From an uncultured Gammaproteobacteria bacterium (lineage in GTDB: Bacteria; Patescibacteriota; Patescibacteriia; Magasanikbacterales; GWA2-37-8), in the NCBI GenBank assembly GCA_964619625.1, contig CAZUFD010000003.1, positions 30,282-94,281 of the forward strand: 64,000 nt of DNA, given 5' to 3'. The first letter of the stretch is position 1, and each line of letters starts with the position of its first letter. Of the stretch, positions 7,652 through 64,000 are shown one piece after another. The translations under genes and the position numbers were made by a program. A model generated the notes under the pieces. It had not been told where the DNA came from and did no database searches. It saw only the letters and a list, made by a program, of their open reading frames with translations.

Positions 7652-7690
7652 AAGCTTGTATTAACCGTATTTTTATTATATCATAAAATA

Positions 7691-7699
7691 TTATACGAC
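7691..7699. repeat. candidate att core TTATACGAC (left copy), followed by CGTATCTTAAT arm-like motif
   Basis: Exact 9-mer recurs at 11634-11642 next to a near-identical CGTCTCTTAAT motif; the two copies bracket the compositionally foreign segment. Confidence 0.3.
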
Positions 7700-7712
7700 G
7701 TATCTTAATTGT

Positions 7713-7862
7713 ATGAGTAGTTTCGTAAAAACCCGTGCGGCCACATTATTTTGGGGATTTGCGGTAACGTATTTTTTTACCGGTCATATCGTTACTTCCC
7801 TTAAGATTTTTGCCGTTATGGCAATTGGCAACACACTTATCATGTGGAAGCTAGTAAAATAA
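7713..7862 (+). CDS. hypothetical small membrane protein (49 aa)
   Basis: ATG-initiated ORF MSSFVKTRAATLFWGFAVTYFFTGHIVTSLKIFAVMAIGNTLIMWKLVK, hydrophobic; not in ORF track (below 60 aa). Confidence 0.3.
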   Translation: MSSFVKTRAATLFWGFAVTYFFTGHIVTSLKIFAVMAIGNTLIMWKLVK

Positions 7863-7872
7863 GGAGCTATAT

Positions 7873-7900
7873 TTGACATAATTATTTTATATGTTAATCT
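7873..7900 (+). promoter_or_regulatory. sigma70-like promoter (TTGACA -35, 16-nt spacer, TAATCT -10)
   Basis: Perfect -35 hexamer 7873-7878 upstream of GC-rich ORF X1. Confidence 0.45.
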
Positions 7901-7939
7901 TTGTATTTAAGACAAAAAAACACCACCAGGGAGGCATCC

Positions 7940-8317
7940 ATGAATTGGCGCGAAGTTGCAAGCCGTGATGATGTGGTGGGCGGGGAGATTGAGACCCAAG
8001 AAGGGGAGTTCATCTTCCGCGGCCCGATCACATCTGTAGAAGTTCGTGATGACGGCCTGGTCTATTTCCAGGTTGCCTGGGCAGCCCAGAAGCCCATCAG
8101 CATGGAAGGCGGATGGGTGAAGCATGAGGCCACAAGCTTCGTGGTGAGCGCACGTGTTTCGATAGAAGATATCGGTGAAGGCAAACTTCACTTCCGAACT
8201 TCGTTTGCGGAGTCCGCAACCATCTTCCTAAAGGGGAGTGGTAACAAACTGAGTCCACGCAATGTTCGTGGTCTGCGGGTTTGTAGAAGTCACAGAAGAC
8301 ATGCCAAGGCTTCTTGA
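7940..8317 (+). CDS. GC-rich small protein, family X copy 1 (hypothetical, 125 aa)
   Basis: GGGAGG SD 5 nt before ATG 7940; about 60% GC versus AT-rich surroundings; weak similarity to 9744-10097 (MNWREV/MKWKKV N-termini; W.K...S...ED motif). Confidence 0.6.
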   Translation: MNWREVASRDDVVGGEIETQEGEFIFRGPITSVEVRDDGLVYFQVAWAAQKPISMEGGWVKHEATSFVVSARVSIEDIGEGKLHFRTSFAESATIFLKGSGNKLSPRNVRGLRVCRSHRRHAKAS

Positions 8318-8391
8318 GAGGGGGAAATCAGTAAGGCCGTCCAAATTGCTTTGATTATAAAAGTTATAGTTAAAGCAATGACGGTCTTAAT

Positions 8392-8419
8392 AAAATACAC
8401 CTTTAATGAGGTGTATTTT
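8392..8419. terminator. bidirectional intrinsic terminator hairpin (AAAATACACCT...AGGTGTATTTT)
   Basis: 11-bp perfect stem between convergent X1 and Y1 genes, flanked by T/A runs. Confidence 0.5.
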
Positions 8420-8564
8420 ATTATTTAAAATTGCAAAACCACCGCCCCGAACTCATCTTTGCAGATAAAATCGGAAACGGTGGTTGAAAGAATCCTTGAT
8501 CGGCATCACTTGTTCCATAGATCAAATGTCCGAATAACTAAGACTCTAGTTGGTTACTCTGGTG

Positions 8565-8873
8565 CTACTCCTCGGCCTGGATAGCGTCCAGCGAACCGAA
8601 AAGTCTGGCGATGAAGAGATCTTCGGCAGCTCCACTGAAGTGCTGAGAAAGTTGGATCGTGATGGTGCAATCGGCGCGTCCCCGCCAGTCTCCGTGGTTG
8701 GCCACGGAGGTGAGCAGTTCGTGGTCCTCAATCGAGGCCGGCGCCAGGTAGTTCTCGGTCATCCGAAGCAGTTCTCTGACAGCGCCGGTTGCGCCGTATT
8801 TGAACTGCAGTCTCAACCTACGACTGCCGTTGCGCGCCTTCTTCAGTTCGACAGACATTTGCTCTCTCATCAT
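8565..8873 (-). CDS. GC-rich small protein, family Y copy 1 (hypothetical, 102 aa)
   Basis: GGAGG SD 5 nt before ATGATG start at 8873; TTGACC-17-TACCAT promoter on minus strand about 8928-8956; paralog of 9424-9732 and 47997-48308. Confidence 0.65.
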   Translation of the reverse strand: MMREQMSVELKKARNGSRRLRLQFKYGATGAVRELLRMTENYLAPASIEDHELLTSVANHGDWRGRADCTITIQLSQHFSGAAEDLFIARLFGSLDAIQAEE

Positions 8874-9027
8874 ACACACCTCCGAGGTGGGATGGAATTG
8901 TTTGTGCCGTGAACAAAGTAGCATGGTACCCTACTTTTAGCCCCAGGTCAATTAAATATATCAAATCTTTAGTTTATTTTTAGGAAAAATTTATTATAGT
9001 TAGTGTATAGTAAATCTTAACTATAAT

Positions 9028-9306
9028 ATGAAAATAAAGTTTTATTTAGTATTTTTCTGTCTGTTAATTTTGTTAGGCGCTGGCTGTAAAAAAGAAGAAT
9101 GGCAAGGATTTTATTATCCAAACGGCTGTCTTTCGTGCATGGAAGATTATATCTATAGCCCAACGCTTTCTTCAGTGGAAGAATGCCATAACTGGGCACA
9201 GGAAATAAAGAAAGAGCGGGGGGATAACCCAACCGATCAATATGAATGTGGTTTAAATTGTAGGGCCAAAGGTATTTTGCATGTTTGCAAGGAAACGGTA
9301 GATTAA
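9028..9306 (+). CDS. small Cys-rich lipoprotein (92 aa)
   Basis: Signal peptide with lipobox LLGAGC; AT-rich codon usage (host-like); TATAAT at about 9021. Confidence 0.55.
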   Translation: MKIKFYLVFFCLLILLGAGCKKEEWQGFYYPNGCLSCMEDYIYSPTLSSVEECHNWAQEIKKERGDNPTDQYECGLNCRAKGILHVCKETVD

Positions 9307-9373
9307 GTAAAAATTTTACTATCCGCCTGCTCTAGCAAGTCGTTTTTTAGTACTCAAATAGCGGAATAGATAA

Positions 9374-9401
9374 TTGACAATAATAATTAATGTGTTAGTC
9401 T
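9374..9401 (+). promoter_or_regulatory. sigma70-like promoter (TTGACA -35, 16-nt spacer, TAGTCT -10)
   Basis: Perfect -35 at 9374-9379; same architecture as promoter at 7873. Confidence 0.4.
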
Positions 9402-9423
9402 TATGTACCAGGAGGAAGATTCC

Positions 9424-9732
9424 ATGAAAGAGAAAGCTGCCGAAGTCCTTGGACAGGCTCTGGTGGGTACGCGGACGCTCAAGCTGACGTTCAAGCGAAC
9501 AGCTCCAGCAATTGTCTTCAGGCATCTGGATTCAATGTGGGGCAGAGGACTGTTGTTCCTCTCCAGCGGTAATCGAGTGCGACTCAAGATGCTTCTGGCC
9601 AAGGGTGCCGATTGGGGAGGGGATGAGAAGCGAGTTCTGGAGCTTACCCTTACCGTGGAATTCACGGAACAAAGCCGGGGTTGGTTTATTCGCCAGGTTT
9701 CCGATGGCCTGGACGATATCCAGGCTGTGTGA
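9424..9732 (+). CDS. GC-rich small protein, family Y copy 2 (hypothetical, 102 aa)
   Basis: AGGAGG SD 9410-9415; conserved blocks GTRTLKLTFKRTAPAIV, ADWGGDE, LTLTVEF, LDDIQA shared with Y1 and Y3. Confidence 0.7.
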   Translation: MKEKAAEVLGQALVGTRTLKLTFKRTAPAIVFRHLDSMWGRGLLFLSSGNRVRLKMLLAKGADWGGDEKRVLELTLTVEFTEQSRGWFIRQVSDGLDDIQAV

Positions 9733-9743
9733 GAGGAGTTCTT

Positions 9744-10097
9744 ATGAAATGGAAAAAGGTTGATCGGGTAAATAAAGGGATTACCATAACCGGAAATCAT
9801 GGTGTCCCGCCAACAAGATGGTGGAACCACTGGTGGCTTGCACTCTTCGGCTGGAAGACAATTGTCACGTTCCGTCTTCCTGACGAGGTAGTAGCAAGCG
9901 GGTACCATGTGGGCTTCACGGCCAAAGACGGCAAGTCATGGTGCAAGCGCGCAGTCGCGCACGATAAGTTCTTTAGCATGAAAATCGGGTACGAGGATTG
10001 CAAGTTCTGGGTCAAAACAGCCCGCAATCCCGAACAGCCCGATACGGGTGGCGCAGTGATTTTGCCCGAGCTCATCAGCAGAGGGCCTCTTCACTAA
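9744..10097 (+). CDS. GC-rich small protein, family X copy 2 (hypothetical, 117 aa, Trp-rich N-terminus)
   Basis: GAGGAG SD; ATG 11 nt after Y2 stop (operon); WWNHWWLALFGW segment. Confidence 0.65.
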   Translation: MKWKKVDRVNKGITITGNHGVPPTRWWNHWWLALFGWKTIVTFRLPDEVVASGYHVGFTAKDGKSWCKRAVAHDKFFSMKIGYEDCKFWVKTARNPEQPDTGGAVILPELISRGPLH

Positions 10098-10169
10098 GAT
10101 GCGGCCATCTTTTCCAAGACGTACCCGCCGCAAGGCGTTTTGGAAATAAAAAACTTGCGGTTTGAACAA

Positions 10170-10202
10170 AAATAACCTTCTCATGAAGGTTATTTTTGTT
10201 TT
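10170..10202 (+). terminator. intrinsic terminator (AAATAACCTTC-TCAT-GAAGGTTATTT + TTGTTTT)
   Basis: 11-bp stem plus T-run downstream of X2. Confidence 0.55.
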
Positions 10203-10261
10203 CCACCACACTATTCATTTTAGTTCTTATACTTAAACATAGATTGTGGTATAATAAATTT

Positions 10262-10438
10262 ATGTCAAAGCTAATTAGACGAAAAAGAGGAGATACAAAA
10301 ATAGGCACCATTGAAAAGATATATGGAAGGGATTTTGGTACGCGTTCAGATGCTAAGTTAGGAAATTTCTTAGAAAAAAATGGCTATGATTCATTAAGCG
10401 AGCTTTTAAGAAAAGATGACAAAAAAAGATCTAGATAA
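10262..10438 (+). CDS. hypothetical small basic protein (58 aa)
   Basis: Internal ATG of ORF 10196-10438; MSKLIRRKRGDTKIGTIEKIYGRDF; AT-rich. Confidence 0.35.
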   Translation: MSKLIRRKRGDTKIGTIEKIYGRDFGTRSDAKLGNFLEKNGYDSLSELLRKDDKKRSR

Positions 10439-11042
10439 TTTAATAAATGACGTACCAGCCCTCGAACATCTCGCTGGGCGTTTTTTATTTATAAAGGATG
10501 AAGAATTAAGACAGAATATTACCATTGCATTCCAATATATTATATTTTTAATTGCTGTTGAGGGTCAAATTACGTGGCCAGGACCAATTATATATTCTAT
10601 TTTTAAGGATATTATGGTTTACACCGGAAGCATTGTTGAGTCTTGTTTGAGGTATTGCATTAAAGAATATTTTAAGGCAGGTAAGATAGATCCTAAGGAT
10701 GTGATGATTGCAGAATGGAAAATAAATAAACACTTTCAAATTTATAAAATAGACGATAACACAGAGGTGTGTTCTTTGGTGAGGCATAAAAAATTTGAAG
10801 ATTTTGGTGATGAAACACGCTTTAAAGATATAAATAAAATTGCACAAAAAGTTGGAATTTTAACAAAAGAATTATTTGAAAAAGCTGACAGGATTAGAAT
10901 TGATAGGAATAAAGTGCATGTAGTTGCTACTGGAGAAACCCATGATTATTTTACAAAAGAAAATACACAAGCGACTTTTAAATCTGCAAAAGAGATAATA
11001 CAAAGAGTAGAGGAAAAATTATTAGAACTTAATAATAAATAA
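10416..11042 (+). CDS. hypothetical protein (208 aa)
   Basis: Long AT-rich ORF, no recognisable motifs; weak hairpin plus T5 at about 11090-11115. Confidence 0.55.
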   Translation: MTKKDLDNLINDVPALEHLAGRFLFIKDEELRQNITIAFQYIIFLIAVEGQITWPGPIIYSIFKDIMVYTGSIVESCLRYCIKEYFKAGKIDPKDVMIAEWKINKHFQIYKIDDNTEVCSLVRHKKFEDFGDETRFKDINKIAQKVGILTKELFEKADRIRIDRNKVHVVATGETHDYFTKENTQATFKSAKEIIQRVEEKLLELNNK

Positions 11043-11695
11043 AAATTTTTAGTATCTAAAGTAGGGAAGTAGTAACGCTTTGACCGCTGTGGCACCCACC
11101 AGGTGCTTTTTAGTTTATTTAATTTGGCTAACCTAAGCCAAACCTACCCTTTTTGGCTAAGATTAGCCTAATTTATGAGGGTAGGGAAGTTCATTACAAT
11201 TCACTTAGTGCACAGCCCCGTTGCTTGTCTATCACTATGACCTATGTTTCGTCTTATCGACTACTTTATAACTCATATGTGGTTGAGGTGTCGGAGGAAG
11301 AGGTTTGCCTTTGACAGCAGTGACCTCAATTCCTGTTCTACCACCGCGGACTCCAATCAACTCAAGTTGAGCTGAGACAGGAGCCTTTTGGCCGGGTTTG
11401 AGAGCTTTCATATAACTATTATGAAATGCGTGAAACAGGCCGACTAATCCTGCAGCTGCTTAATGCAGCAAGTGGTCAACTGCGAACAGCTGAGGAAAGG
11501 TCAAGTCGGGGCCGTGTATTAAATGAACTGTAGAAGTAATTATACCATTAAATGCCTAAAAGGTTTTATAAGACTGAACGGAGGCAGATTAAAGGATCGT
11601 TAAATACCGTATATATACGTCTCTTAATCTATGTTATACGACATTAAGCACAGAGGGCCCAGGGAGATAAAACCAGCCAAATAAGGCTCTCCCCC
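11040..11695. other. 650-nt ORF-free, highly structured region (candidate ncRNA or att/arm region)
   Basis: No ORF of 60 aa or more on either strand; nested inverted repeats (TTGGCTAACCTAAGCCAA; CCTACCC...GGGTAGG; GGCTAAGATTAGCC; GGGAGA...TCTCCC); repeated GTAGGGAAGT; lies between convergent gene ends. Confidence 0.4.
11634..11642. repeat. candidate att core TTATACGAC (right copy), preceded by CGTCTCTTAAT
   Basis: Matches 7691-7710 motifs. Confidence 0.3.
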
Positions 11696-12726: not shown

Positions 12727-13962
12727 TTAAAGTTTTTTGAATCCGGTATATTTACGCAAAGCCCTTGGTATGAGCACGCTACCATCCCTTTGTTGATGAT
12801 TTTCTATAAGCGCCAGAGGGAATCTGCTGGACACAATGGCCGTGCCATTTAGGGTATGCACAAATTCATTTGAACCATCTTCTTTTTTGTATTTTATATT
12901 TAATCTGCGCGCCTGGTAGTCGGTACAGTTACTAGTACTAGTAATTTCTCCGTAATCATTTTTCATGGTCATCCAGGCTTCAATATCGTACTTTCTGTAT
13001 GCCGGTCCGCCCAAATCACCGCTGGCAACATCTATCACTCTGTACGGCAAATCTAAGCCGTCAGCTATCTTTTGCTCTAGTTTTAAAAGCTCCTGGTGCA
13101 TTTTCTCGCTATCTTCCGGTTTGCAATAAATAAACATCTCTAATTTGGTGAATTGGTGTACACGGTATAAGCCTTTACTGGTTTTACCGTAAGCGCCGGC
13201 TTCGGTACGGAAACAATGAGAAATAGCCGCGTATTTTTTTGGTCCTTTGCTTAAATCAAGCACCTCGTCGGCATGGTAGCCTCCCATGGTAATTTCGGCG
13301 GTGCCGATAAGGCTAAGGTCGGTATTTTCTACGGAATATACCTGGGTTTCGGTGCCCCGTGGATTGAAACCAACACCCGAAAGTATTTCGTTTTTAGCTA
13401 AATCAGGGGTTTCTACGAGAGTAAAGCCATTTTTTTCTAATACATCCATCCCATAGTTAAGCATTGCCTGGTTTAAGCGCACCAGATTATTTTTTGCAAA
13501 ATAAAATTTGGAAGCAGCTACTTTAGCGCCTCTTTCAAAGTCTATTAAGTCTAAGCTGAGCATTAACTCATCATGGTCTTTTGGCTGGAAAGAAAATTTG
13601 GGAGGATTTCCTTCTTTGGCCACTATCCTGTAATCATCCTCCCCGCCTATCGGACTTTCCGGATGAGTAAGATTTGGAACTCGTAGTAAAAGTTCTTTGT
13701 ATTTATTTTCTGCCTCTTCGGCATTTTTTTCTAAAATTGCAATATCATCCCCCATCTTGCGCAGTCTGATAATATCATCTTCGCTTGGTTTGCCTTTTGA
13801 TTGGCTTTTTCTTTGGGACCGCAGTTCCTCTACCCCCTTTTGCGTTTCCCGCCTCTCCTCGTCTAATTTAAGCAAGGCATCTACATCTATAGACACATGA
13901 CGATTTTTACAGTTCTCTTTTATTAATTCTTTGTTTTCACGGATGAATTTTATGTCTAGCAT
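12727..13962 (-). CDS. serS: serine--tRNA ligase
   Basis: N-terminal coiled-coil arm (MLDIKFIRENKELIKEN) plus class II core motifs. Confidence 0.95.
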   Translation of the reverse strand: MLDIKFIRENKELIKENCKNRHVSIDVDALLKLDEERRETQKGVEELRSQRKSQSKGKPSEDDIIRLRKMGDDIAILEKNAEEAENKYKELLLRVPNLTHPESPIGGEDDYRIVAKEGNPPKFSFQPKDHDELMLSLDLIDFERGAKVAASKFYFAKNNLVRLNQAMLNYGMDVLEKNGFTLVETPDLAKNEILSGVGFNPRGTETQVYSVENTDLSLIGTAEITMGGYHADEVLDLSKGPKKYAAISHCFRTEAGAYGKTSKGLYRVHQFTKLEMFIYCKPEDSEKMHQELLKLEQKIADGLDLPYRVIDVASGDLGGPAYRKYDIEAWMTMKNDYGEITSTSNCTDYQARRLNIKYKKEDGSNEFVHTLNGTAIVSSRFPLALIENHQQRDGSVLIPRALRKYTGFKKL

Positions 13963-26543: not shown

Positions 26544-26966
26544 TTATGGTAATTTACGATATTTTCTAGCAACTTTCATTTTATTTAATTCCCTATTTAT
26601 TACCGCTTGTAATTTTGCGTAATCAACATCCTGGGCATTCTTTAGATTTGCCATTTGTTCTTCGGCCCTTACGCGCGCTTCCTCGGCTTTATCTATATCT
26701 ATTTCGGCCACTCTCTGCGCGTGGTCGGCTAAAATTACAATTTCATTTTTGCCTCTTACTTCCAAAAATCCTCCGGAAACTGCCATTTGCTGCTCACCTT
26801 CTTTATCTTTGAATTTTAATTCACCGGCTTTAAGGACGGAAATAAGCGGAATGTGGTTTGGAAGAACTGTAATTTCACCCTCCATGGTAGGAATGGTAAC
26901 TTGATAAATTTCATTCTCGTAAATTGTTTTTTCCGGCGTTACGATTTTGAACTTGAGCATAATCAA
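26544..26966 (-). CDS. atpC: F-type ATP synthase epsilon subunit
   Basis: Beta-sandwich plus helical hairpin sequence, position after atpD. Confidence 0.9.
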   Translation of the reverse strand: MIMLKFKIVTPEKTIYENEIYQVTIPTMEGEITVLPNHIPLISVLKAGELKFKDKEGEQQMAVSGGFLEVRGKNEIVILADHAQRVAEIDIDKAEEARVRAEEQMANLKNAQDVDYAKLQAVINRELNKMKVARKYRKLP

Positions 26967-26971
26967 TTATT

Positions 26972-28369
<1,398 letters not shown>

Positions 28370-28392
28370 TTAATGGATTAATAAGCGAGAAT

Positions 28393-29349
28393 TTATTCCA
28401 GTGCCGCCGCACCACCCGCAATTTCTGCGATTTCTTGGGTGATGCCGGCTTGTCTGGCTTTGTTATAGGTTAAGCTTAGTTCGTGAATCATATCTTTGGC
28501 TGCTTCGCTGGCGTTTTTCATGGCCACCATGCGGCTGCTATGTTCACTGGCCGAAGATTCTAGCATGGTTTGATAAATTTGTGTTTCTACGAGTCGCGGC
28601 AGAATTATTTTTAAAACATCTAATTTGTTTGGTTCAAATAAATAATCGTTTAAATTTGTCCCGATTTCGCTTTGGCGCGAAATCGAGGATGCTCGACTTT
28701 GTTGCGACAAAGTCGGCATTTTCTCAGCTCCTTCTTCTGTGTCAAATAAAGTTTTTTCCAAATCGGTTTCAGAAATTGGCAGAACTTGTCGTAGTTTTGC
28801 TGTTTGCACGAGCGCCGATTTAAAATCCGTATAAGCGACAATTACTTTGTCGTAAGATTTATTTTCATAGGCATCTATTATCATTTTGGCAATGGGTAGC
28901 GCGTCATCAAAATTTGGCGTGTCAGTCATGTTAGTAAAAGCGGCGGTAAGGTTATAACCCATTTTTTTGGCAAAGTCCGCGCCTTTTTTGCCGATGCCAA
29001 TAACATCCACCCCTGCTTTTTCCCTCGTCATTTGCAAAGCTGTTTTTTTAATTATATTGGCATTAAAACTGCCGCACAATCCCCTGTTAGAGGTGATTAT
29101 AATCATCAGAATTTTTTCTACTGGTCTGGTGGCTAACAGTGGCATTTGCTCTTTCTGAGTTTTGGACAAATTAACCAAAAGTTCCCAAGCCAAAGTAGCA
29201 TAGGCGCGAGTGTCCAGAGCGGCATTTACAGCCTTTCGCATTTTGGCCGCCGCGATCATTTCCATAGCCTTAGTGATCTTTTTGGTACTGGCAATGGATT
29301 TTAAGCGGCGTTTAATTACTTTTGTGTTAATGGCCATACGTATAAACAA
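28393..29349 (-). CDS. atpG: F-type ATP synthase gamma subunit
   Basis: IKRRLKSIASTKKITKAMEMIAAAKMRKA N-terminus. Confidence 0.9.
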   Translation of the reverse strand: MFIRMAINTKVIKRRLKSIASTKKITKAMEMIAAAKMRKAVNAALDTRAYATLAWELLVNLSKTQKEQMPLLATRPVEKILMIIITSNRGLCGSFNANIIKKTALQMTREKAGVDVIGIGKKGADFAKKMGYNLTAAFTNMTDTPNFDDALPIAKMIIDAYENKSYDKVIVAYTDFKSALVQTAKLRQVLPISETDLEKTLFDTEEGAEKMPTLSQQSRASSISRQSEIGTNLNDYLFEPNKLDVLKIILPRLVETQIYQTMLESSASEHSSRMVAMKNASEAAKDMIHELSLTYNKARQAGITQEIAEIAGGAAALE

Positions 29350-29350
29350 T

Positions 29351-29764
29351 TTATCTTGTTTTTTTTACAAATTCTTCAAATGCTTCTCTGTATTTTTTTA
29401 CTGATTCATTTCTAGATTGTGCTAGCAGCAAAGCCATTTCTTCCTTTACATCAAATTTTTGTTTTTGCGCCCTGTTCAAAGCAAGTGTTACTTGAAAAAC
29501 TAATTTAAACAATTCTGTGTCCGCTTCGGAAAATGTGTAACTGATAATCCCTTTCTCGCTTGTAACACGATGATCAGAAGAAAATTCTTGTTCAAGTTTA
29601 AGGAGCGAACTTACAAAAATTATACGATCTTCTTTGCTAAACTCCATTAAATCATCATGTTCTTCAAAACGGATCTTTAGTTCCTCAATTGCAATTACGT
29701 CAGCCTTACTTTTGGCTTCTTTTTTACCCAACCAGCTTATTTTTCCCTCTATATCACTGGGCAT
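29351..29764 (-). CDS. hypothetical protein inserted between atpA and atpG
   Basis: 137 aa from internal ATG, helical/charged, no known motif; tightly packed between alpha and gamma genes. Confidence 0.5.
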   Translation of the reverse strand: MPSDIEGKISWLGKKEAKSKADVIAIEELKIRFEEHDDLMEFSKEDRIIFVSSLLKLEQEFSSDHRVTSEKGIISYTFSEADTELFKLVFQVTLALNRAQKQKFDVKEEMALLLAQSRNESVKKYREAFEEFVKKTR

Positions 29765-29768
29765 ACAA

Positions 29769-31268
29769 TTATTTTTTTGCAAATTCCCCGCAAGCATCTT
29801 TTAACTCATTTTCAATTTCATTATCCCATTCACCTGCTTCCAATCTGGCCAAGAGCCCGCTCTTTGATTGTTCCATAAATGTATGGAACGCGCCTTCCCA
29901 GCTTCGCATATCTTTTACCGCGACAGCACTCGCAAAGCCATTACTTACCGCGTAGATGGCGGCTACTTGTTGAGACACGGCCATTGGTTCGTATTGCGGC
30001 TGCTTTAAAATTTCCACCATTCTCTGGCCAAGATCAATTTGATTTTTTGTTTCCGCGTCCAAATCCGAAGAGAATTGCGCAAACGCTTCCATTTCACGGA
30101 ACTGCGCCAAAGACAATTTTAATTTTCCGGCAACTTTTTTCATTGGTTTGATTTGAGCCGCGCCGCCAACACGCGATACGGAAATGCCCACGTTAAGCGC
30201 CGGGCGGATGCCTTTGAAGAACAGATCTGTTTCCAAGAAAATTTGACCATCAGTAATGGAAATCACGTTGGTTGGGATATAGGCCGTCACATCGCCGGCC
30301 TGAGTTTCAATAATCGGCAGTGCTGTAATAGAGCCTCCGCCGGATTCCTTGTTGCGGCGGCAAGCGCGTTCCAAAAGTCTGGAATGAATATAGAATACAT
30401 CGCCAGGGTAAGCTTCGCGGCCTGGTGGACGGCGAAGAAGCAGCGAAATTTCACGATACGCCCAAGCTTGTTTGGATAAGTCATCGTATACGCATAAGAC
30501 ATCTTTGCCTTTATCCATAAAGTATTCGGCCATAGCTACGCCAGCGTACGGAGCAATATATGACAAGGCCGCAGGTTGAGATGCGCCAGCTACCACCACA
30601 ATCGTATAATCCATAGCTCCTGCTTCTTTTAATTTTGCCACGATACGAGCGATTTTTGATTCTTTCTGGCCAATGGCAACATATACGCAAATAATGTCTT
30701 TACCTTTCTGATTGATAATAGTATCAATGGCTACGGCGGTTTTACCGGTCTGGCGGTCGCCGATAATAAGTTCGCGCTGGCCGCGTCCAACCGGAATAAG
30801 GGCATCAATAGCTTTGATACCGGTCTGTAAAGGCTGTGTTACCGGTTCTCTGGTCATTACGCCCGGAGCGATTTTTTCAACAGGGTAAAATTTGCTGGTT
30901 TTTATTTCTTTACCGCCATCAATAGCTTGTCCTAAAGGGTTTACAACTCGCCCTACAAGCTCCTCTCCAACCGGCACAGATAAAATGCGGTTTGTTCTTT
31001 TTACCGTATCCCCTTCTTTAATATATCTATATTCGCCAAGCAATACACACCCAACGGTTTCTTCTTCTAAATTTAAGGCTAGACCATACGTTATCTGGTC
31101 TCCGGAACCAAACTCCAACATTTCACTGGCCTGGCATTTGGACAAGCCGCTGATGCGGGCAATGCCGTCTCCCACTTCAATAACTTTGCCGGTTTCTTCT
31201 TGCTGGGCCTCTTTTTGAAAGAGAGATATATTTTTTTTGATTTCTTCAACAATATTATTTGTAGCCAT
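29769..31268 (-). CDS. atpA: F-type ATP synthase alpha subunit
   Basis: GDRQTGKT P-loop. Confidence 0.95.
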
Positions 31269-31277
31269 ATTCGGTTT

Positions 31278-31667
31278 TTATTTTATTAAAGCTTGTTTTA
31301 ATTTATGCAATTGAGTTTTTAAACTGGCGTCGTATACTACATCGTCTATCTTTATTTTTACTCCGCCGACTAAATCTTTATTTATTTTCTGCGTTATTTC
31401 CGATGTTGCTCCAAATACTTTTTGAATATTTTCTTTAGCTTTATTATTTATTTCGTGAACGCTTTCCATCTCAATTGTTTTGATTCCGGATTGTTTTTTT
31501 GCGTATGCTTCAAATTCTTTTATAATATATTCTATTTTTTTAACTTTATTATATTTTTGCAGGGTGACAAAAAATTGTTTTACAATTTGCGGCAAACTTT
31601 CCGCCGGTACATTTTTCGTAACTTCGTACAGGGCTTTGGCAAATTGTAAATTACTCTGCTTTCGCAT
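31278..31667 (-). CDS. atpH: F-type ATP synthase delta (OSCP) subunit, short form
   Basis: Position between atpF and atpA; C-terminal GGVKIKIDDVVYDASLKTQL. Confidence 0.75.
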   Translation of the reverse strand: MRKQSNLQFAKALYEVTKNVPAESLPQIVKQFFVTLQKYNKVKKIEYIIKEFEAYAKKQSGIKTIEMESVHEINNKAKENIQKVFGATSEITQKINKDLVGGVKIKIDDVVYDASLKTQLHKLKQALIK

Positions 31668-33796: not shown

Positions 33797-33930
33797 GCAT
33801 TTTTACAGGTGGATTGTTGTTGATAAAACTGCAGCTACAGAACCCAGCGGCCACACTCTCTAGATTTATGGCTGTTTTTGTTTATTTTGGCTAATTTTAA
33901 ACTAAAAATAGATAAAATTTTGATAAAGTA

Positions 33931-34392: not shown

Positions 34393-34417
34393 TTGGGTGT
34401 GCCGGCGCGAAGCATCT

Positions 34418-35143: not shown

Positions 35144-35164
35144 CGCCTCTACTGCGCAAGGTCT

Positions 35165-38831: not shown

Positions 38832-38840
38832 AAATAAATT

Positions 38841-39041
38841 TTATTTTTGTTCTGGCTTTTTTGGAGTAAAAAACCAATACCAAATTAAGCCGACTAATAC
38901 CCAAGAAATAATAAAAATTGCCATTTCAATCAGCCAGCTCGGTTCATGGCCTGCAAATTCTAAATACCCAAAATACAAAGGCAATGCTATAAATCCCCAC
39001 ATTATACCAAAAATTATTCGGTCATATATATCTAGCATCAT
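38841..39041 (-). CDS. hypothetical small membrane protein (66 aa)
   Basis: Two hydrophobic helices; between metG and rsmI on the same strand. Confidence 0.4.
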   Translation of the reverse strand: MMLDIYDRIIFGIMWGFIALPLYFGYLEFAGHEPSWLIEMAIFIISWVLVGLIWYWFFTPKKPEQK

Positions 39042-39733
39042 ATTGTATTTACCACAATAACAAACTCCCCTCGTTCATCTTGCATTTTTTCTGTTACTTG
39101 TTCAATCGTACCTCTATATATGGTCTCAAATTTTTTAGTTATTTCTCTACAAACCATAACTTGTCTTTTTACATCTAAGACTTCTTTCAACTCAGTCAGG
39201 CATTTTTTGATTCTATGCCCTGATTCGTAAAACACGACGGTAAATTCGCAGGCCGCTATTTCTTTAAAATATTTTTGGCGTTTATTTTTGTGCGGCGGAA
39301 ACCCCATAAACACAAATTTATCCGTGGGAAAGCCGGAAATAGACAAAGCGGCGATGACGGCTGATGGGCCGGGAATCGGTACAACTTCGGCAACTCCCCC
39401 TGCCCCCTCTTGGAAAGAGGAGGATGACACGAGCTGAGCGATTAATAGCCCGCCCGGATCGCTAATGCCAGGCGTACCGGCATCGGTAACTAAGGCTAGA
39501 TTTTTTCCTTCTCCTAGCAAACCAATAATTTCTTTAATTTTTCTTTGTTCCGTATGTTGGTGATAACTTATGAGCGGCTTGGAAATTTGATAATGTTCTA
39601 ACAAATTTTTGCTCACGCGTGTATCTTCACATAGCACAACGTCAACACTTTTAAGTGTTTCTAGGGCGCGGAGCGTAATATCCGCCAAATTACCAATGGG
39701 CGTGGCGACAATATATAGTTTTCCTGGCTGCAT
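39038..39733 (-). CDS. rsmI: 16S rRNA (cytidine1402-2'-O)-methyltransferase RsmI, with in-frame 35-nt repeat insertion
   Basis: LYIVATPIGNLADITLRALETL...VLCEDTR...VPIPGPSAVIAALS; extra SSSSFQEGAGGVAEV segment encoded by the repeat at 39389-39423. Confidence 0.85.
   Translation of the reverse strand: MQPGKLYIVATPIGNLADITLRALETLKSVDVVLCEDTRVSKNLLEHYQISKPLISYHQHTEQRKIKEIIGLLGEGKNLALVTDAGTPGISDPGGLLIAQLVSSSSFQEGAGGVAEVVPIPGPSAVIAALSISGFPTDKFVFMGFPPHKNKRQKYFKEIAACEFTVVFYESGHRIKKCLTELKEVLDVKRQVMVCREITKKFETIYRGTIEQVTEKMQDERGEFVIVVNTI
39389..39423 (+). repeat. 35-nt palindromic mini-repeat copy A (GGCAACTCCCCCTGCCCCCTCTTGGAAAGAGGAGG)
   Basis: Near-identical to 63455-63489 and to reverse complement of 63044-63079; internal hairpin CCTCTT-GGAAAG-AGGAGG. 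Confidence 0.55.
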
Positions 39734-43468: not shown

Positions 43469-43589
43469 ACCACACTATGGGGATTTAAGCCTTATTCTAC
43501 AGTCTTTTCTGAAACTGTAAACCCCTCTATAAATTGACTCTTTATTCTACTAATGATAGCGTACTAATACACCCTAGAAGGAGTAAAGG

Positions 43590-43925
43590 ATGACCAGAAA
43601 CCCATCTGTGGGTGTCTTTAGAAGAATGTGGTGGTGCATTCGGTGCCGGAGAGCGTTGCCTAACGGCGGCCCATGCTCCCGCTGCAGAGGGATGCAGTGC
43701 ATTGGGTGCAAGGGGGCGCCTGACGGTCAATGCTCTCGCTGTAGAGGAAACTTCTGCATTTCTTGCTTTGAAGCGCATGCGCAAGTGAACCATGCGCCAA
43801 ACATGGTGATGACAGGGGTCAGTTGTGTGGAATGCGGAAATGAACCGGATGGCCAGTGTGCCCACTGCCCGGCAATCCTGTGCGAAGGCGAGGAATGCCG
43901 AAAAACCCACGAAGGCAGGCATTAG
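43590..43925 (+). CDS. GC-rich Cys-rich protein with three tandem CxxC-x(8-10)-CxxC zinc-ribbon units (111 aa)
   Basis: GAAGGAG SD 6 nt before ATG; repeats CIRCRRALPNGGPCSRCRG / CIGCKGAPDGQCSRCRG / CVECGNEPDGQCAHC; TTGACT at 43534. Confidence 0.6.
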   Translation: MTRNPSVGVFRRMWWCIRCRRALPNGGPCSRCRGMQCIGCKGAPDGQCSRCRGNFCISCFEAHAQVNHAPNMVMTGVSCVECGNEPDGQCAHCPAILCEGEECRKTHEGRH

Positions 43926-43974
43926 TCGTAACAGTGAAGACGGCTATGGAAGTATTTGCCCGATCGGGCAACCA

Positions 43975-44010
43975 GGACATCTGCAAGCCCAGCTCTGTCC
44001 TTGTTTTTTT
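43975..44010 (+). terminator. intrinsic terminator (GGACA...TGTCC + T9), preceded by hairpin TTGCCCGATCGGGCAA at 43956-43971
   Basis: Stem-loops followed by TTGTTTTTTT. Confidence 0.6.
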
Positions 44011-47350: not shown

Positions 47351-47923
47351 TTAATTTTCTTCCTCTAAAATTGTTTGTATCTCACTAATCATGCCTTGAG
47401 CTGTTAGACTTTTAGGATCGTCTAAAATGGCTCCTATACCACCGTATATAGTGGAATAAGTTTCAGAGTTTTTCTTATCCTCTTTTTTATTACTTTTTGC
47501 TATTGCGAGACTTCCTTCATAATTAAGTATTGCTGCACGGGCATTAAGTTTCGCTGTTTTGGATAACGCTTTTTCTGATTTTTCTTGCGCTTCGGCAGAT
47601 TTTTTTAATTCTCTCCTAGTCATCTCAAGCTCACTTCTCTGAAGTTTTAGCTCTTCCCTCTGTAATACAATAGCATAAATAACACCCAGAAAAGCTAAGC
47701 CAGAAAAAAGTGCGTTAATACCTCCAAACATATCTCCAAATAACCCTCTATCGGTCATTTTTGAAAAAAACTTACTTACAATCAAAAAATAAACGATAAG
47801 TACCAATAAGGTTGCTATAATTGAAAAAACTATTTTTTTCATAGAATTAATAATACCGCACTGTTTAAGAGATTCTTCCGCTTCGGACAGAATGACACTA
47901 ATATTGTACCTGATTTTGGCCAT
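47351..47923 (-). CDS. hypothetical membrane protein with coiled-coil
   Basis: Two TM helices plus charged helical region. Confidence 0.5.
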   Translation of the reverse strand: MAKIRYNISVILSEAEESLKQCGIINSMKKIVFSIIATLLVLIVYFLIVSKFFSKMTDRGLFGDMFGGINALFSGLAFLGVIYAIVLQREELKLQRSELEMTRRELKKSAEAQEKSEKALSKTAKLNARAAILNYEGSLAIAKSNKKEDKKNSETYSTIYGGIGAILDDPKSLTAQGMISEIQTILEEEN

Positions 47924-47948
47924 TTTAAACAGGCCGGCAGTATTTTTA

Positions 47949-47977
47949 TTGACAGCAAAAAATCAATAAGGGATAAT
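47949..47977 (+). promoter_or_regulatory. sigma70 promoter TTGACA-17-GATAAT
   Basis: Perfect -35, 17-nt spacer, 5/6 -10, 20 nt upstream of SD AAGGGGG. Confidence 0.6.
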
Positions 47978-47996
47978 ATCCGCCAAGGGGGAAACC

Positions 47997-48308
47997 ATGC
48001 AGAACAAGCTTTCGTTGGCCTTGGAGCAGGCGCTCCAGGGATCATGTCAGGTTCAAATCACTTTCAAACGGGATGCGGCTAACAGTGTCCGCTCTCTGCT
48101 GAGAATGATCAAGACCGGGCACATCTTGATGCCGGACGATGAGGAGAAGGCTCTCAAGAAGACCGCTCAGTCCGGTGGGTGGGGTGAAGATCGTCATCGT
48201 ACGACAAATGTCACGTTCACGAGCATTTTCGTCAAGGCCGATATGAAGGATACGTTTGCCAGAATGATGCGTCTAGCCATCGAACAGATCGAGGTCGTGC
48301 CATCCTAA
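47997..48308 (+). CDS. GC-rich small protein, family Y copy 3 (orphan, 103 aa)
   Basis: Blocks GSCQVQITFKRDAANSVRSLLRM, SGGWGEDRHRTTNVTFTSIF, LAIEQIEVV align with Y1/Y2. Confidence 0.7.
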   Translation: MQNKLSLALEQALQGSCQVQITFKRDAANSVRSLLRMIKTGHILMPDDEEKALKKTAQSGGWGEDRHRTTNVTFTSIFVKADMKDTFARMMRLAIEQIEVVPS

Positions 48309-48330
48309 GCAGCAAGCCTGCCAAAACAAA

Positions 48331-48368
48331 GAGCGCCAGGATAATCATCCCGGCGCTCAAATTATTTT
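48331..48368 (+). terminator. intrinsic terminator (GAGCGCCAGG...CCCGGCGCTC + A/T tail)
   Basis: 9-bp GC-rich stem after Y3 stop. Confidence 0.55.
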
Positions 48369-48404
48369 AGAATAATTATTTCAATTTTTCATTTTTTAAA
48401 TTAA

Positions 48405-48866
48405 TTAACGAATAGACCCCCAATTATTTAGATATTCTTGTGCACCGGGATTTACTTCTCCGCTTTTATTCAGAGACACTATAAATTTATATAATTTATT
48501 GTTATTTGATCTGGTTTCTTTTAATTTTAAAGTCGGGACAATAAAAAACATGTTATGCTCAAACCACAGACCTATTAAGTAATCGGCTTCGGTTTTTTCT
48601 ACTTCAGTCAACGTAAAATGTGTAACGCTATTGTGGTTACTCGACGAGCTAACCAATCTTTGCCGCGTCTTAACTTCCAGTTTAATTTTTCTACCATTTG
48701 AATGGTTAAACAAAAGTATATCATACCCCTTTTCATCATAGTTTCTATATACAGACCAACCTTTGGCATTAAAATAATAATATAAGTAAAACATCACAGA
48801 AAGTTCTCCGATCTCTTTCAAAGAGTCACTTATATTTTGTGCGGTTTTTTTATTGATAAATTCCAT
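48405..48866 (-). CDS. PD-(D/E)XK-like nuclease-fold protein (hypothetical)
   Basis: GYDILLFNHSNGRKIKLEVKTRQ resembles D...E.K catalytic motif. Confidence 0.5.
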   Translation of the reverse strand: MEFINKKTAQNISDSLKEIGELSVMFYLYYYFNAKGWSVYRNYDEKGYDILLFNHSNGRKIKLEVKTRQRLVSSSSNHNSVTHFTLTEVEKTEADYLIGLWFEHNMFFIVPTLKLKETRSNNNKLYKFIVSLNKSGEVNPGAQEYLNNWGSIR

Positions 48867-61527: not shown

Positions 61528-61617
61528 TGTACTGGGCTGTTCCCCTACTAAAAAATAGGAACTAATGGCTGTATTTTATCATAAATTCATGTTATACTCA
61601 AGGAAATAATATCTATC

Positions 61618-63009
61618 ATGAACTACCTGAAACATTTTTCCCTCAGCGCGCTTTCAGTAATCGCTTTGCTTGTTTTTATCATTATAAATCCCGGTACCGG
61701 CTTTGACCTTTTGGCTTTTTTACTGATAGTTTTTATTATCCTGCAAAAAATCTTTGGCGAATACTTTATTCTTATTCTTTTGGCAATGCGTCCGGCCCTG
61801 GATTACTGGCGTGATCTGAACCTTTTTTCCTTTAATCTTTTTGATTTTAATATCAACGCCGCTCTTTCAGTCTTTTTGCTTGCTTGGTCTATTATTTTCT
61901 TTCTTAAAAATCACGAGTATTTTGCGGACATTCCATTAAAGGCGCCGTTTCTGGCGCTTATTCTTTGGTGCGGGATTTCAGCTTTTTATACGTATAATCT
62001 ATCCTCCACCATTACCGAAACTATAAAGCTCGCAAATTTATTCGCTCTGTTTGGCATTTGTTATATTATGGCGAAAAAAGACGGTGCTAAATTTAAAGAT
62101 TTTTTCTTAAAATCAGCGATTTTGGCCGCAACCATTCCTATTACGGTCGGCATATATCAATTCATCAGTAAAACCGGCGCGGATATTGATGAATTATCCA
62201 ATAGAATTTATGGTACTTTTGCTCACCCAAACGTGCTTGCCACGTTCGCGCTGGTGTTACTTTTTATAGTCATAAATGAAATTGCATCCAGACATAAAAA
62301 AACAGAAAACATTTTTGATTTTAATAATGATGCTCCCCTAAAAATTTCCGCTCTGTTTTTATCTTTTATAATACTGCTCACCTACACTCGCATCGCCTGG
62401 GTTGGAACGGCAATGTTATTTGCCATAGTGGGCCTCATATATTATCGCAAAATTATTATATACGCTCTTGCCGGTATTGCTTTGTTTTACGCGCTTTTTT
62501 ACCCGGTGAATAATTACTTAATAAATAATCATAATGTTAATTTACAGGCTTCTCATTTTATCTTTAGATTAACTGCCCGCAATCAAGATTCGGACTCCAT
62601 ACGATGGCGCACCAATTTGATAACAAAAGTACTGCCTCTCTTTAAAGAAAAATATTTATACGGCTATGGATACGGCACGTTTGCGCGTGTTTGGGATGAT
62701 AATAAAGATATAGAAAATCTTTGGGATAATACCTCCGAAGCGCACAATGATTATATAAAAGTCGCGTTTGAATCCGGCATTATTGGTTTGGTATTATTTT
62801 TACTGATTTTTGTTTCTTTGCTATACAGACAAATACTGCTGGGCGTAAAAAATCATTGGGCAAACATTGTGTTCATTGCCAGTATTTTTGCGTATTTGGT
62901 TATGAGTATGAGCGATAATATGCTGCACCATACGCCGGTGATTTGGTGGCTTTGGGCCGTGTGGGGTTGGTGGACGGCAGGCACTAAGCCCTTAAATTCT
63001 AGATCCTAA
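61618..63009 (+). CDS. O-antigen ligase/polymerase (Wzy_C)-family membrane protein
   Basis: About 10 TM helices, periplasmic loop WDNTSEAHNDYIKVAFESG. Confidence 0.7.
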   Translation: MNYLKHFSLSALSVIALLVFIIINPGTGFDLLAFLLIVFIILQKIFGEYFILILLAMRPALDYWRDLNLFSFNLFDFNINAALSVFLLAWSIIFFLKNHEYFADIPLKAPFLALILWCGISAFYTYNLSSTITETIKLANLFALFGICYIMAKKDGAKFKDFFLKSAILAATIPITVGIYQFISKTGADIDELSNRIYGTFAHPNVLATFALVLLFIVINEIASRHKKTENIFDFNNDAPLKISALFLSFIILLTYTRIAWVGTAMLFAIVGLIYYRKIIIYALAGIALFYALFYPVNNYLINNHNVNLQASHFIFRLTARNQDSDSIRWRTNLITKVLPLFKEKYLYGYGYGTFARVWDDNKDIENLWDNTSEAHNDYIKVAFESGIIGLVLFLLIFVSLLYRQILLGVKNHWANIVFIASIFAYLVMSMSDNMLHHTPVIWWLWAVWGWWTAGTKPLNSRS

Positions 63010-63043
63010 GATTGAGATGGAAGAAGTTGCCGAAATTTTAGTT

Positions 63044-63079
63044 CCTCCTCTTACCAAGAGGAGGTTAGGAGGAGTTGCC
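63044..63079 (-). repeat. 35-nt palindromic mini-repeat copy B (reverse orientation)
   Basis: Reverse complement GGCAACTCCTCCTAACCTCCTCTTGGTAAGAGGAGG matches copies A and C. Confidence 0.5.
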
Positions 63080-63086
63080 GGTGTCT

Positions 63087-63521
63087 ATGGCTAAAATATT
63101 CAACAGAAAAAAATTTCTCAGCTTCAGATCAGAGCTTCGTAATAAAATGACTAAAAGTGAAATTTTACTCTGAAAATATCTAAAAAATGATCGGGTGGGT
63201 TTTAGATTTAGAAGACAGTACGGGATTGGAAATTATATAGTTGATTTTTACTGCCCTAAGTTAAAACTTGCCATAGAAATAGATGGGTTTACACATGCCG
63301 AAGAGAAAGTATTTATAAAAGATCAAAATAAAGAAGCTTTTTTAAAAAAGAATAATATAATCCTGAAAAGATATAATAGCGCTCAAATATTTAATGACTT
63401 AGATAACGTACTCTTGGATATTGAACATGGTTGTACAGAAATAGCCGAAGCTTCGGCAACTCCCCCTACCCCCTCTTGGAAAGAGGGGGAAACAAAAAAC
63501 CACCCGGAGAGAGTTACCTAA
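63087..63521 (+). pseudogene. DUF559 (Vsr-like endonuclease-fold) gene with in-frame TGA at conserved Trp and mini-repeat-derived 3' end
   Basis: ATG 63087 ...ELRNKMTKSEILL*KYLKNDRVGFRFRRQYGIGNYIVDFYCPKLKLAIEIDGFTH; stop replaces W of conserved LLW motif; C-terminus SATPPTPSWKEGE encoded by repeat copy C. Confidence 0.65.
63455..63489 (+). repeat. 35-nt palindromic mini-repeat copy C
   Basis: GGCAACTCCCCCTACCCCCTCTTGGAAAGAGGGGG; 33/35 identical to copy A. Confidence 0.55.
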
Positions 63522-63774
63522 ATAAGTAATAAATTATTTATTCGGGTAATCGGGTGAAAATTTTGCTAGGCAGATAAATCTGTCTATTTTTATTCATTAT
63601 TTACTAATGAACAGTGTAGATAGATTTTTATTTAATTTTTGTATCTTCTCATTTATTTTTCCACTATTTTTATATAATGGAAAAAATGCATGAGAGGAGA
63701 AGGGCTGCAGCTGCAGACAAAAGTCTCTGCCGCTTCTCCTTGCCTTGAGGGTTTCTCAAGGACTTGCTTGCCAA

Positions 63775-64000
63775 CTAGGGTGGGGTCACCGTGATCCGGA
63801 TACGGGCGATGTGATCTACACCATTGACCGGACAACGGAAAGTGTGATCACCGCTCTCGTTCGGCGAGAAGTTGTTGAATGTACCATTAGACGGATACTG
63901 TCCTCCTTGCTGAGGCATTCCGCCGTTCATGGGACCTCCACTAAGGTCTTGGCTCCTTCCGTCACAATCTGCGGTACCGGGAGATTGCCAATGCAGACTG
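63775..64000 (-). CDS. 3' end of GC-rich ORF continuing beyond window (Gly/Gln/Asn/Pro-rich)
   Basis: Open frame from window edge to TAG at 63775-63777: ...GGPMNGGMPQQGGQYPSNGTFNNFSPNESGDHTFRCPVNGVDHIARIRITVTPP. Confidence 0.3.
   Translation of the reverse strand, partial: SLHWQSPGTADCDGRSQDLSGGPMNGGMPQQGGQYPSNGTFNNFSPNESGDHTFRCPVNGVDHIARIRITVTPP

Follow-up and report, generated by a model that had tools for sequence, protein, structure and literature searches.

Why would a bacterial chromosome whose genes largely do without Shine-Dalgarno (SD) sequences carry clusters of small GC-rich genes, each with its own promoter, SD and terminator signals? The question is raised by a 64-kb stretch of contig CAZUFD010000003.1 (the window, 40.7% GC), in which a sequence-only reading had pointed to five GC-rich patches and suggested mobile cassettes, an engineered construct or a chimera of assembly or binning. 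The window is chromosomal DNA of a tiny groundwater bacterium, a member of Candidatus Magasanikbacteria (Patescibacteria, or candidate phyla radiation, CPR), and neither phage nor plasmid, because its large open reading frames (ORFs) are housekeeping genes and its closest public genome is the Candidatus Magasanikbacteria metagenome-assembled genome (MAG) GCA_016182085.1 (the sister; contig JACOYB010000009.1, here L001). We find that the patches are natural, carry autonomous expression signals and turn over at intergenic slots. They are probably accessory, moron-like transcription units, whose acquisition and replacement drew on an SD-using gene pool of higher GC.

Foreign composition and autonomous signals

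All five patches were recovered where they had been placed, in intergenic positions, and they contain 11 small ORFs (C1 to C11; Table 1) whose products have the sizes first given, 38-136 amino acids (aa). The GC content of 58-68% ascribed to the patches fits only local 100-nt maxima (0.58-0.69). Over whole patches the values are 0.466 (7870-10200), 0.517 (33900-35900), 0.525 (43500-44000), 0.463 (47900-48400) and 0.545 (63700-64000), or 0.46-0.55, and the cassette coding sequences (CDSs) have 47-61% GC. The remainder of the window has a GC content of 0.399 (400-nt windows: s.d. 0.041, maximum 0.51). Patch 1 is mixed, as it also encloses an AT-rich lipoprotein gene (9028-9306).

GC content at third codon positions (GC3) is 0.54-0.99 in the cassette ORFs (z +2.9 to +10.8) and averages 0.377 in 55 core genes (s.d. 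0.056, maximum 0.464), with zero overlap between the two sets. Short GC peaks of 53-55% also occur within core genes, whose GC3 remains host-like. Codon preference is reversed for lysine, with an AAG/(AAA+AAG) ratio of 0.74 in cassettes versus 0.17 in core genes, and for phenylalanine, with a TTC/(TTT+TTC) ratio of 0.83 versus 0.14. In composition-normalized tetranucleotide usage, the pooled cassettes correlate with the host at r=0.47, whereas host segments of equal size reach 0.91±0.02 (minimum 0.84). The normalized patches thus do not show the host-like k-mer signature that had been named as refuting foreignness. The patches are compositionally foreign and, as their GC3 span attests, heterogeneous among themselves, both of which the sequence-only reading had proposed.

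The strong SDs attributed to the cassettes are equally clear. Core genes are preceded by A/T-rich sequence lacking a purine-rich motif. When an SD is defined as a stretch of 5 nt or more that matches AAGGAGGTGAT and lies 4-20 nt before the start codon, it is present in 8 of 10 cassette genes and 2 of 57 core genes (Fisher P=3e-7). Host-gene starts were taken from ORF calls, whose lengths mostly match the gene calls of the sister genome. At the first start codon, large ORFs of five Magasanikbacteria loci have an SD in 0-3% of cases, those of two Firmicutes control loci in 33-40%, and those of high-GC Uhrbacteria loci in 13-14%, rising to 31-33% when any early start is allowed. Being SD-led within an SD-less core, the cassettes are thus outliers in apparent translation as well as in composition.

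SD-poor translation is also a property of the Bacteroidota. In Parcubacteria, the anti-SD motif has been reported missing from the 16S rRNA in about half of the group (PMC9297842), and the SD-less core here and in the other Magasanikbacteria loci is consistent with such loss or weak use. The window differs from these SD-poor systems in that a minority of small genes with strong SDs stands alongside the SD-less majority. A TATAAT-like box lies directly or closely 5' of the ATG in several core genes, among them the lipoprotein gene at 9028 (examples in 9000-9030 and 7652-7690). This placement, together with the missing SD, suggests leaderless or SD-independent initiation in the lineage.

Promoter predictions follow the same division. 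The pattern TTGAC[ACT]-N16-18-TANNNT has 11 matches on the two strands of the window (4.9±2.1 expected), 7 of them directly upstream of cassette genes (binomial P ~2e-12); with the near-variants of C6 and C10, nine cassette promoters of the form TTGAC-N16-18-TAnnnT are predicted. The E. coli-like consensus that had been noted is borne out by near-perfect TTGAC -35 boxes but not by the -10 boxes, which are mostly non-consensus. For this reason a generic promoter and terminator scanner misses most cassette promoters; it found no overall enrichment, and explicit motif counts and folding were used instead. Each unit also closes, as had been described, with a predicted intrinsic terminator in which a T-run follows a GC-rich hairpin; in some units two such terminators stand in tandem.

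Host genes had been said to show none of these features. That is essentially true of the SD and false of promoters and terminators, since the atp operon has a promoter of the cassette type (33796-33768, minus strand) and terminator-like sites also occur in the host. The description of each patch gene as an autonomous cassette holds with two qualifications: C3 and C4 form a single bicistronic unit, and C11, on the minus strand, is incomplete.

Natural origin, divergence and turnover

A promoter, a strong ribosome-binding site, a GC-rich CDS and a double terminator resemble synthetic parts, and the GC3 of C8 (0.985), on an AT-type amino-acid composition, resembles codon optimization. Even so, a chimera and an engineered construct are both excluded because the sister MAG and independent assemblies (Logan, ENA and JGI) share the same cassettes at identical positions. 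C1, C2, C4, C5, C6, C7 and C8 occupy identical junctions in the sister; the patch-1 arrangement is repeated in an independent Logan contig; a second Logan contig (L003) matches C10 and its flanks at 100% identity; and an independent NCBI metagenome contig (L004) carries C3 at 97% identity. The two Logan assemblies stem from different runs. Engineering is further contradicted by natural orthologues that diverge 8-15% in nucleotides from those of the sister, with synonymous divergence (dS) equal to that of flanking genes, by in-frame indels and by compensatory changes in terminators. Related cassettes are present in Hainich groundwater and JGI metagenomes, and a blastn search of PLSDB plasmids with patches 1 and 2 gave no match. 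The probability that the patches are an artefact is, in our judgement, close to nil.

That the cassette ORFs are coding is supported by in-frame indels relative to the sister (two of 3 nt in C5, one of 9 nt in C8), by the extreme third-position signal of C8 and by a ratio of nonsynonymous to synonymous divergence (dN/dS) below 1 in all seven testable genes. C2, C3 and C10 are mutual paralogues (25-34% identity, pairwise E=4e-9) of a family that comprises 156 clusters at 50% identity (E<=1e-3) among 1.8 billion representatives. Matches span the full length, with the consensus ...ALxGSRKVxITFK...W..D..RT..VTLT..FD..F..RM..ALEKIEVV, and hmmsearch with a family profile that included the test sequences recovers C2 (E=5e-25), C3 (7e-21) and C10 (8e-31). 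For the same reason, the idea that GC3 follows nearness to the family consensus is no more than an impression. The AlphaFold2 model of the family is alpha/beta (pLDDT 93), and Foldseek found no significant PDB or BFVD match to it. C2, C3 and C10 thus belong to an unnamed family of about 100 aa, perhaps an undescribed fold or domain family. All members with an organism named by the source are from Patescibacteria (Parcubacteria or Magasanikbacteria). Family members everywhere share the layout of promoter, SD, ORF and terminator, and their GC3 ranges from host-like up to 0.93.

Searches of ten cassette proteins against Pfam, PHROGs, PADLOC and NCBIfam gave no significant match (best E-values 0.0015, 0.0035, 0.014 and 0.096, with scores far under family cut-offs), and none of the ten matches the PADLOC, Pfam or NCBIfam models of known anti-phage defence or toxin-antitoxin components. 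C9 has no match in Pfam, PHROGs, PADLOC or phages. Exact-protein look-ups with C8, C9 and the XerC-like protein of the window returned no identical record. Among 5.8e9 proteins, the sole homologue of C1 is that of the sister genome; C8 also has its sole homologue there (78% identity), with a replaced N-terminal region.

Cassette dS relative to the sister is 0.10-0.22, the same as that of low-divergence core genes, and the cassettes are therefore older than the split of the two strains. dN/dS is 0.76 for C5, 0.73 for C8, 0.62 for C2, 0.58 for C6, 0.48 for C7, 0.32 for C1 and 0.18 for C4, compared with 0.00-0.24 (about 0.1) for core genes (Mann-Whitney U test, P=4e-5); C2, for instance, has 84% aa identity to its sister orthologue. 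The promoters of C5, C6 and C7 are identical in the window and the sister, as is the 5' untranslated region (5'UTR) of C5 save for two adjacent mismatches just 3' of the -10 box. The terminator hairpins of C5 and C8 have kept their structure through compensatory changes or replacement of whole stems. The expression signals are under purifying selection, whereas the encoded proteins are changing fast. Genes for conflict or host interaction typically show this pattern.

The best-conserved non-coding stretch that we observed is 33931-34055, which covers the C5 promoter, 5'UTR and first codons. The 5'UTR folds such that the SD is held in a hairpin loop (aacggc-gaaagga-gccgtt). It has no match in Rfam and may serve as a regulatory leader.

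Cassettes vary between related genomes by presence or absence and by replacement within slots. C3 is missing from the sister, where the same promoter leads directly to C4. The junctions of this difference fall inside two AGGAG SD motifs (window 9415-9733, L001 9850-9880), a placement suggesting that microhomology of the SDs mediated a deletion or an insertion. Window and sister differ as well in the AT-rich lipoprotein block and in the recombinase next to it. Between tatD and the atp operon, the window and the sister have 2.1 kb holding C5-C8, while in a related genome (L018) the junction is about 70 nt, made up of the tatD stop codon, the atp promoter and atpI, and the slot is empty. The slot is filled differently in L093 (GCA_001783215.1), a distant Magasanikbacteria genome: it holds four other small genes on the plus strand, whose GC3 of 0.48-0.69 exceeds the host range of 0.21-0.37, and the final gene is a C7 homologue (30% identity, E=4e-10) in the equivalent position beside tatD.

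The slot between the transketolase gene (tkt) and the sulfatase gene holds a member of the C2/C3/C10 family in three lineages, each with a TTGACA-N17 promoter, an SD and a terminator; GC3 is 0.66 in the window, 0.62 in L005 and 0.93 in L096. The L096 copy is 66% identical to one in L099 that lies between an xer-like gene and rpsO, versus 41-45% to the copies in its own slot, and the family tree is incongruent with slot. Across hosts of about 41-43% GC, family GC3 spreads from 0.47 to 0.93.

Variable slots also contain AT-rich accessory genes alongside the GC-rich cassettes (9028-9306, 10199-11691, 47351-47923, 48405-48866 and 63195-63521). They encode, in this order, the lipoprotein, ORFs of 208 aa and 190 aa, a NOV_C/endonuclease-like protein and a DUF559/Vsr-like protein; the sister lacks the lipoprotein gene and the 208-aa ORF. 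The variable DNA is thus not all GC-rich.

Origin of the cassettes

We propose a model where each unit consists of a promoter of sigma-70 type, its -35 box near-perfect, followed by a 5'UTR, a strong SD, one small ORF (in one case two) and one or two intrinsic terminators. Positioned at operon boundaries between core genes and equipped with signals of its own, a unit would be transcribed and terminated independently and would leave its neighbours undisturbed. The units would have been acquired, and repeatedly replaced, from a GC-richer, SD-using pool within or associated with Patescibacteria, with amelioration following. After arrival, purifying selection would retain the expression signals while the small proteins diverge fast. 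Besides three alpha/beta family members, the predicted products include one secreted or anchored, one Cys-rich and one acidic protein and a peptide of 38 aa.

Acquisition with repeated replacement is the most likely history given the foreign codon usage, the SDs and the near-neutral synonymous drift. At codons for identical amino acids, synonymous differences from the sister amount to 7.8% in cassettes versus 9.8% in core genes, nearly all of them transitions between G or C (S) and A or T (W). Change this close to neutral speaks for import from a GC-richer pool rather than for a GC3 kept high by selection. Constraint on GC3, or a GC-favouring bias, is mild at most, with 43 S-W changes observed in cassettes where an AT-biased neutral model predicts about 61 (P=0.008). 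Together with this mild constraint, the spread of family GC3, the incongruence of tree and slot and the empty slot of L018 favour repeated import or replacement. The donor pool is probably internal to Patescibacteria, rather than, for example, Actinobacteria, because the named members of the widely traceable family are only from Patescibacteria. The Uhrbacteria loci, with a GC content of 0.60-0.62, coding GC3 of 0.66-0.88 and more frequent SD use, are possible donors. General work on horizontal gene transfer in Patescibacteria exists (PMC12455944). Of the explanations first put forward, mobile cassettes from a higher-GC donor is thus the best supported, in modified form, as chromosomal moron-like units.

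Some observations weigh against acquisition. No actual donor sequence was found, and no transposase, cassette-specific integrase, direct repeat or tRNA was seen around the cassettes. For C1 and C8, homologues came from the sister alone, and the named family members are confined to Patescibacteria. The occurrence of C7 homologues beside tatD and of the family in the tkt slot persists across deep divergence and could mean long residence with GC3 maintained; the 30% deficit of S-W changes points weakly to upkeep of GC3 by selection or biased gene conversion. As about half of the Parcubacteria are reported without an anti-SD (PMC9297842), the SD sites could be relics of the donor rather than functional signals. 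Finally, we infer expression itself from promoters and terminators that are predictions.

Several of these points would suit native, long-resident Magasanikbacteria genes, the GC3 and SDs of which are held by selection (for instance on mRNA stability, or through an SD-dependent translation of their own) or by GC-biased gene conversion at recombination hot spots. The patescibacterial family, the family's recurrence in one slot in three lineages, the C7 homologue beside tatD in the distant L093, the purifying selection on expression signals and the S-W deficit all agree with such residence, and the mosaic of the core (dS ~1 in atp genes, serS and metG) indicates that recombination is frequent. 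Yet synonymous sites in the cassettes still change at about 80% of the core rate, nearly always by S-W transitions, and the range of GC3 within one family, in hosts of similar GC content, looks like stages of amelioration rather than a selected optimum. The family tree conflicts with slot, the L018 slot is empty, and atp and other probably well-expressed core genes have no rise in GC3. We consider native genes of this kind an unlikely explanation.

Delivery by temperate CPR phages, the backbone of which has since been lost, is more improbable, although the architecture fits the definition of phage morons, which possess a promoter and a terminator of their own, a GC content unlike that of their neighbours and the status of extra DNA in aligned related genomes (PMC3594210). 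Like morons of the HK97/HK022 type, the cassettes are independent units of one or two small genes with a factor-independent terminator, and the accessory genes of morons are often conflict-related. The extra DNA is evident at the tatD-atp junction, which measures 2.1 kb here against about 70 nt in L018, and in C3, missing from the sister. A Xer-like tyrosine recombinase also adjoins patch 1. The cassettes differ from morons in lying between housekeeping operons of a CPR chromosome, outside any phage or prophage and without phage homologues in the catalogues searched, and SD-led initiation in an SD-less genome is no part of the moron concept. The flanking genes are all housekeeping genes (atp operon, tatD, thiI, ribH, tkt, sulfatase and xerC/D-like), there is no significant PHROG match, tblastn of C8, C9 and C10 against 50,697 phage genomes (INPHARED) gave no match, and an IMG/VR scan for C4, C9 and C10 gave no relatives. 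The family fold has no BFVD match, and the recombinases score best against the NCBIfam models of XerD (227 bits) and XerC. As flanking phage genes, shared repeats and att/attC-like sites are lacking too, the plasmid or phage vehicle earlier suggested is not supported. For patch 1, an integron-like array captured by the adjacent tyrosine recombinase is a very remote prospect. Integron cassettes are likewise small, mostly single-gene, heterogeneous and function-unassigned units that vary among close relatives, and cassette islands have a Xer-like recombinase as neighbour in the window, in L099 and in the sister, where it is another paralogue and lies at the island's opposite end. On the other side, the recombinases reach 100 bits with the TIGR02249 integron integrase model (cut-off 265), over the C-terminal catalytic part only, and no IntI-type integrase or attC was found. 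Cassette ends share no sequence, their palindromes are individual terminator hairpins only, and no RYYYAAC/GTTRRRY framing was seen on inspection. Each unit, moreover, has its own promoter and terminator, C2 is reversed, and the cassettes are spread across five loci, only one of which has a recombinase close by.

The XerC/D-like recombinase gene of the window (6686-7651) adjoins the patch-1 island. In the sister, a 30%-identical paralogue is found at the opposite end of the island (L001 7944-8888), and a 44%-identical homologue adjoins a family cassette in L099 (4841-5767). The association of recombinase and cassette may be chance or may point to a region prone to recombination.

Acquired ORFans, or genomic islets under amelioration (the Lawrence-Ochman framework), offer another comparison. 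Shared features are an atypical GC3 and oligonucleotide signature, a narrow distribution, elevated dN/dS, presence/absence polymorphism and graded GC3. Acquired ORFans are usually AT-richer than their host, whereas the cassettes are GC-richer, lack mobility genes and tRNA or att landmarks, and have AT-rich, highly conserved regulatory parts. A classical genomic island was considered and rejected: the composition is atypical, but there is no tRNA, there are no repeats, and no integrase or transposase lies at four of the five loci.

Inventory, surroundings and significance

The units and their predicted signals are listed in Table 1. The C8 terminator hairpin adjoins the stop codon of the convergent tatD (35908) and could stop transcription from either direction.

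Table 1. Cassette units of the window, with predicted promoters, SD sites and terminators (window positions; minus-strand features are given in 5' to 3' order)
Cassette	Unit	Strand	Promoter	SD	CDS	Hairpins and terminators	Product and remarks
C1	7873-8426	+	7873-7900 (TTGACA-N16-TAATCT, TG-extended)	AGGGAGG 7928-7934	7940-8317 (GC 0.53, GC3 0.54)	Long hairpin 8335-8386; terminator 8392-8426	125-aa ORF
C2	8427-8951	-	8951-8923 (TTGACC-N17-TACCAT)	CGGAGGTG 8884-8877	8873-8565 (GC3 0.71)	Terminator 8485-8427	102 aa, small-protein family member
C3	9374-10202 (bicistronic, with C4)	+	9374-9401 (TTGACA-N16-TAGTCT)	9408-9418	9424-9732 (GC3 0.58)	Shared with C4	102 aa, family member
C4	9374-10202 (bicistronic, with C3)	+	Shared with C3	9731-9743	9744-10097 (GC3 0.61)	Terminator 10168-10202	117 aa
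C5	33931-34534	+	33931-33959 (TTGACA-N17-TACTAT)	34023-34032, within hairpin loop of 5'UTR	34042-34392 (GC 0.58, GC3 0.65)	Tandem terminators 34418-34491 and 34497-34534	Acidic 116-aa protein
C6	34536-34826	+	34536-34565 (TTGACC-N17-TACGAA)	TAGGAGGG 34570-34577	34584-34700 (GC3 0.74)	Hairpins 34759-34786 and 34792-34826	38-aa micro-protein
C7	34833-35204	+	34833-34862 (TTGACC-N18-TAGTTT)	AAGGAGGT 34868-34878	34883-35143 (GC3 0.63)	Terminator 35167-35204	86-aa protein
C8	35252-35909	+	35252-35280 (TTGACA-N17-TATAAT); 5'UTR 130 nt	35394-35403	35410-35820 (GC 0.61, GC3 0.985)	Terminator 35874-35909	136-aa protein with N-terminal signal/anchor
C9	43534-44010	+	43534-43562 (TTGACT-N17-TAGCGT)	GAAGGAG 43577-43589	43590-43925 (GC 0.57, GC3 0.61)	Terminator 43974-44010	Cys-rich 111-aa protein with repeated CxxC motifs; thiI-ribH interval
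C10	47949-48368	+	47949-47977 (TTGACA-N17-GATAAT)	AAGGGGGA 47985-47996	47997-48308 (GC3 0.66)	Terminator 48331-48368	103 aa, family member; transketolase-sulfatase slot
C11	63681-64000 (incomplete)	-	Beyond window	GGAGG 63941-63931	Candidate start 63930, stop 63775 (GC 0.54, GC3 0.60)	Terminator hairpin and T-run 63739-63681	ORF of at least 51 aa, open at window end

The large ORFs of the window encode D-Ala-D-Ala ligase (ddl), ADP-forming acetyl-CoA synthetase, pyruvate:ferredoxin oxidoreductase (PFOR), flavodoxin, the XerC/D-like recombinase, FtsQ, SerRS (serS), LysRS (lysS), GreA, PBP2, an AddA-like helicase-nuclease, the F-type ATP synthase operon, TatD, CvpA, MetRS (metG), ThiI, RibH, transketolase (tkt), a sulfatase-family protein, S30AE and MurB. 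Scans of the 64 kb for tRNAs and Rfam families gave no match. Nucleotide identity is 80-96% where the sister contig is collinear with the window (1-19.6 kb and 25.3-42.3 kb). In serS (12727-13962), atpC-D-G-A-H (26544-31667) and metG with a 231-aa gene (37299-39733), dS relative to the sister is ~0.7-1.3, and it is 0.11-0.3 in the genes next to these blocks; amino-acid identity of the high-dS genes stays high. Homologous recombination with a lineage of greater divergence typically leaves such a mosaic.

L018 and the high-GC Uhrbacteria loci came from a contig scan with a 400-aa core protein of the window, matches to which are mostly from distant taxa. Six of the loci (L018, L013, L019, L021, L026 and L027) have a gene order of Magasanikbacteria type (400-aa gene, metG, cvpA, tatD, atp) and 53-59% identity to the 400-aa protein; their Gammaproteobacteria titles look like taxonomic mislabels.

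Beyond acquired moron-like units, it is tempting to speculate that Magasanikbacteria, and perhaps other SD-less Patescibacteria, have two expression regimes, an SD-free AT-rich core and a separate, lineage-wide class of GC3-rich, SD-led small genes that have promoters with a consensus -35 box and terminators acting as insulators, and that occupy recurring slots between genes. One version would have previously unrecognized mobile cassettes, without recombinase or repeats, exchanged inside the CPR gene pool. In the other, GC3 and SD would be actively maintained, by biased gene conversion or specialized translation, because the proteins would act in symbiont-host or phage conflict. We offer the idea tentatively, as a possibility on the doubtful side, and this grading applies to it as a whole and not to either version separately. 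A limited full-text literature search turned up no description of a GC3-rich, SD-led small-gene class in these genomes.

The CPR makes up a very large uncultured share of bacterial diversity, and its lineage-specific small proteins are mostly without an assigned function. Small genes such as those in the window form a discrete class that sequence alone can reveal, by the jump in GC3 combined with an SD, a promoter with a consensus -35 box and an intrinsic terminator. The cassettes also provide a worked example of engineered-looking DNA shown to be natural through independent assemblies. For organisms reported to be losing the anti-SD, they raise the question of whether SD sites are used, and by which ribosomes. 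As a class that turns over at fixed slots, with protein evolution several times the core rate, they supply a shortlist of candidate effectors of symbiosis or conflict.

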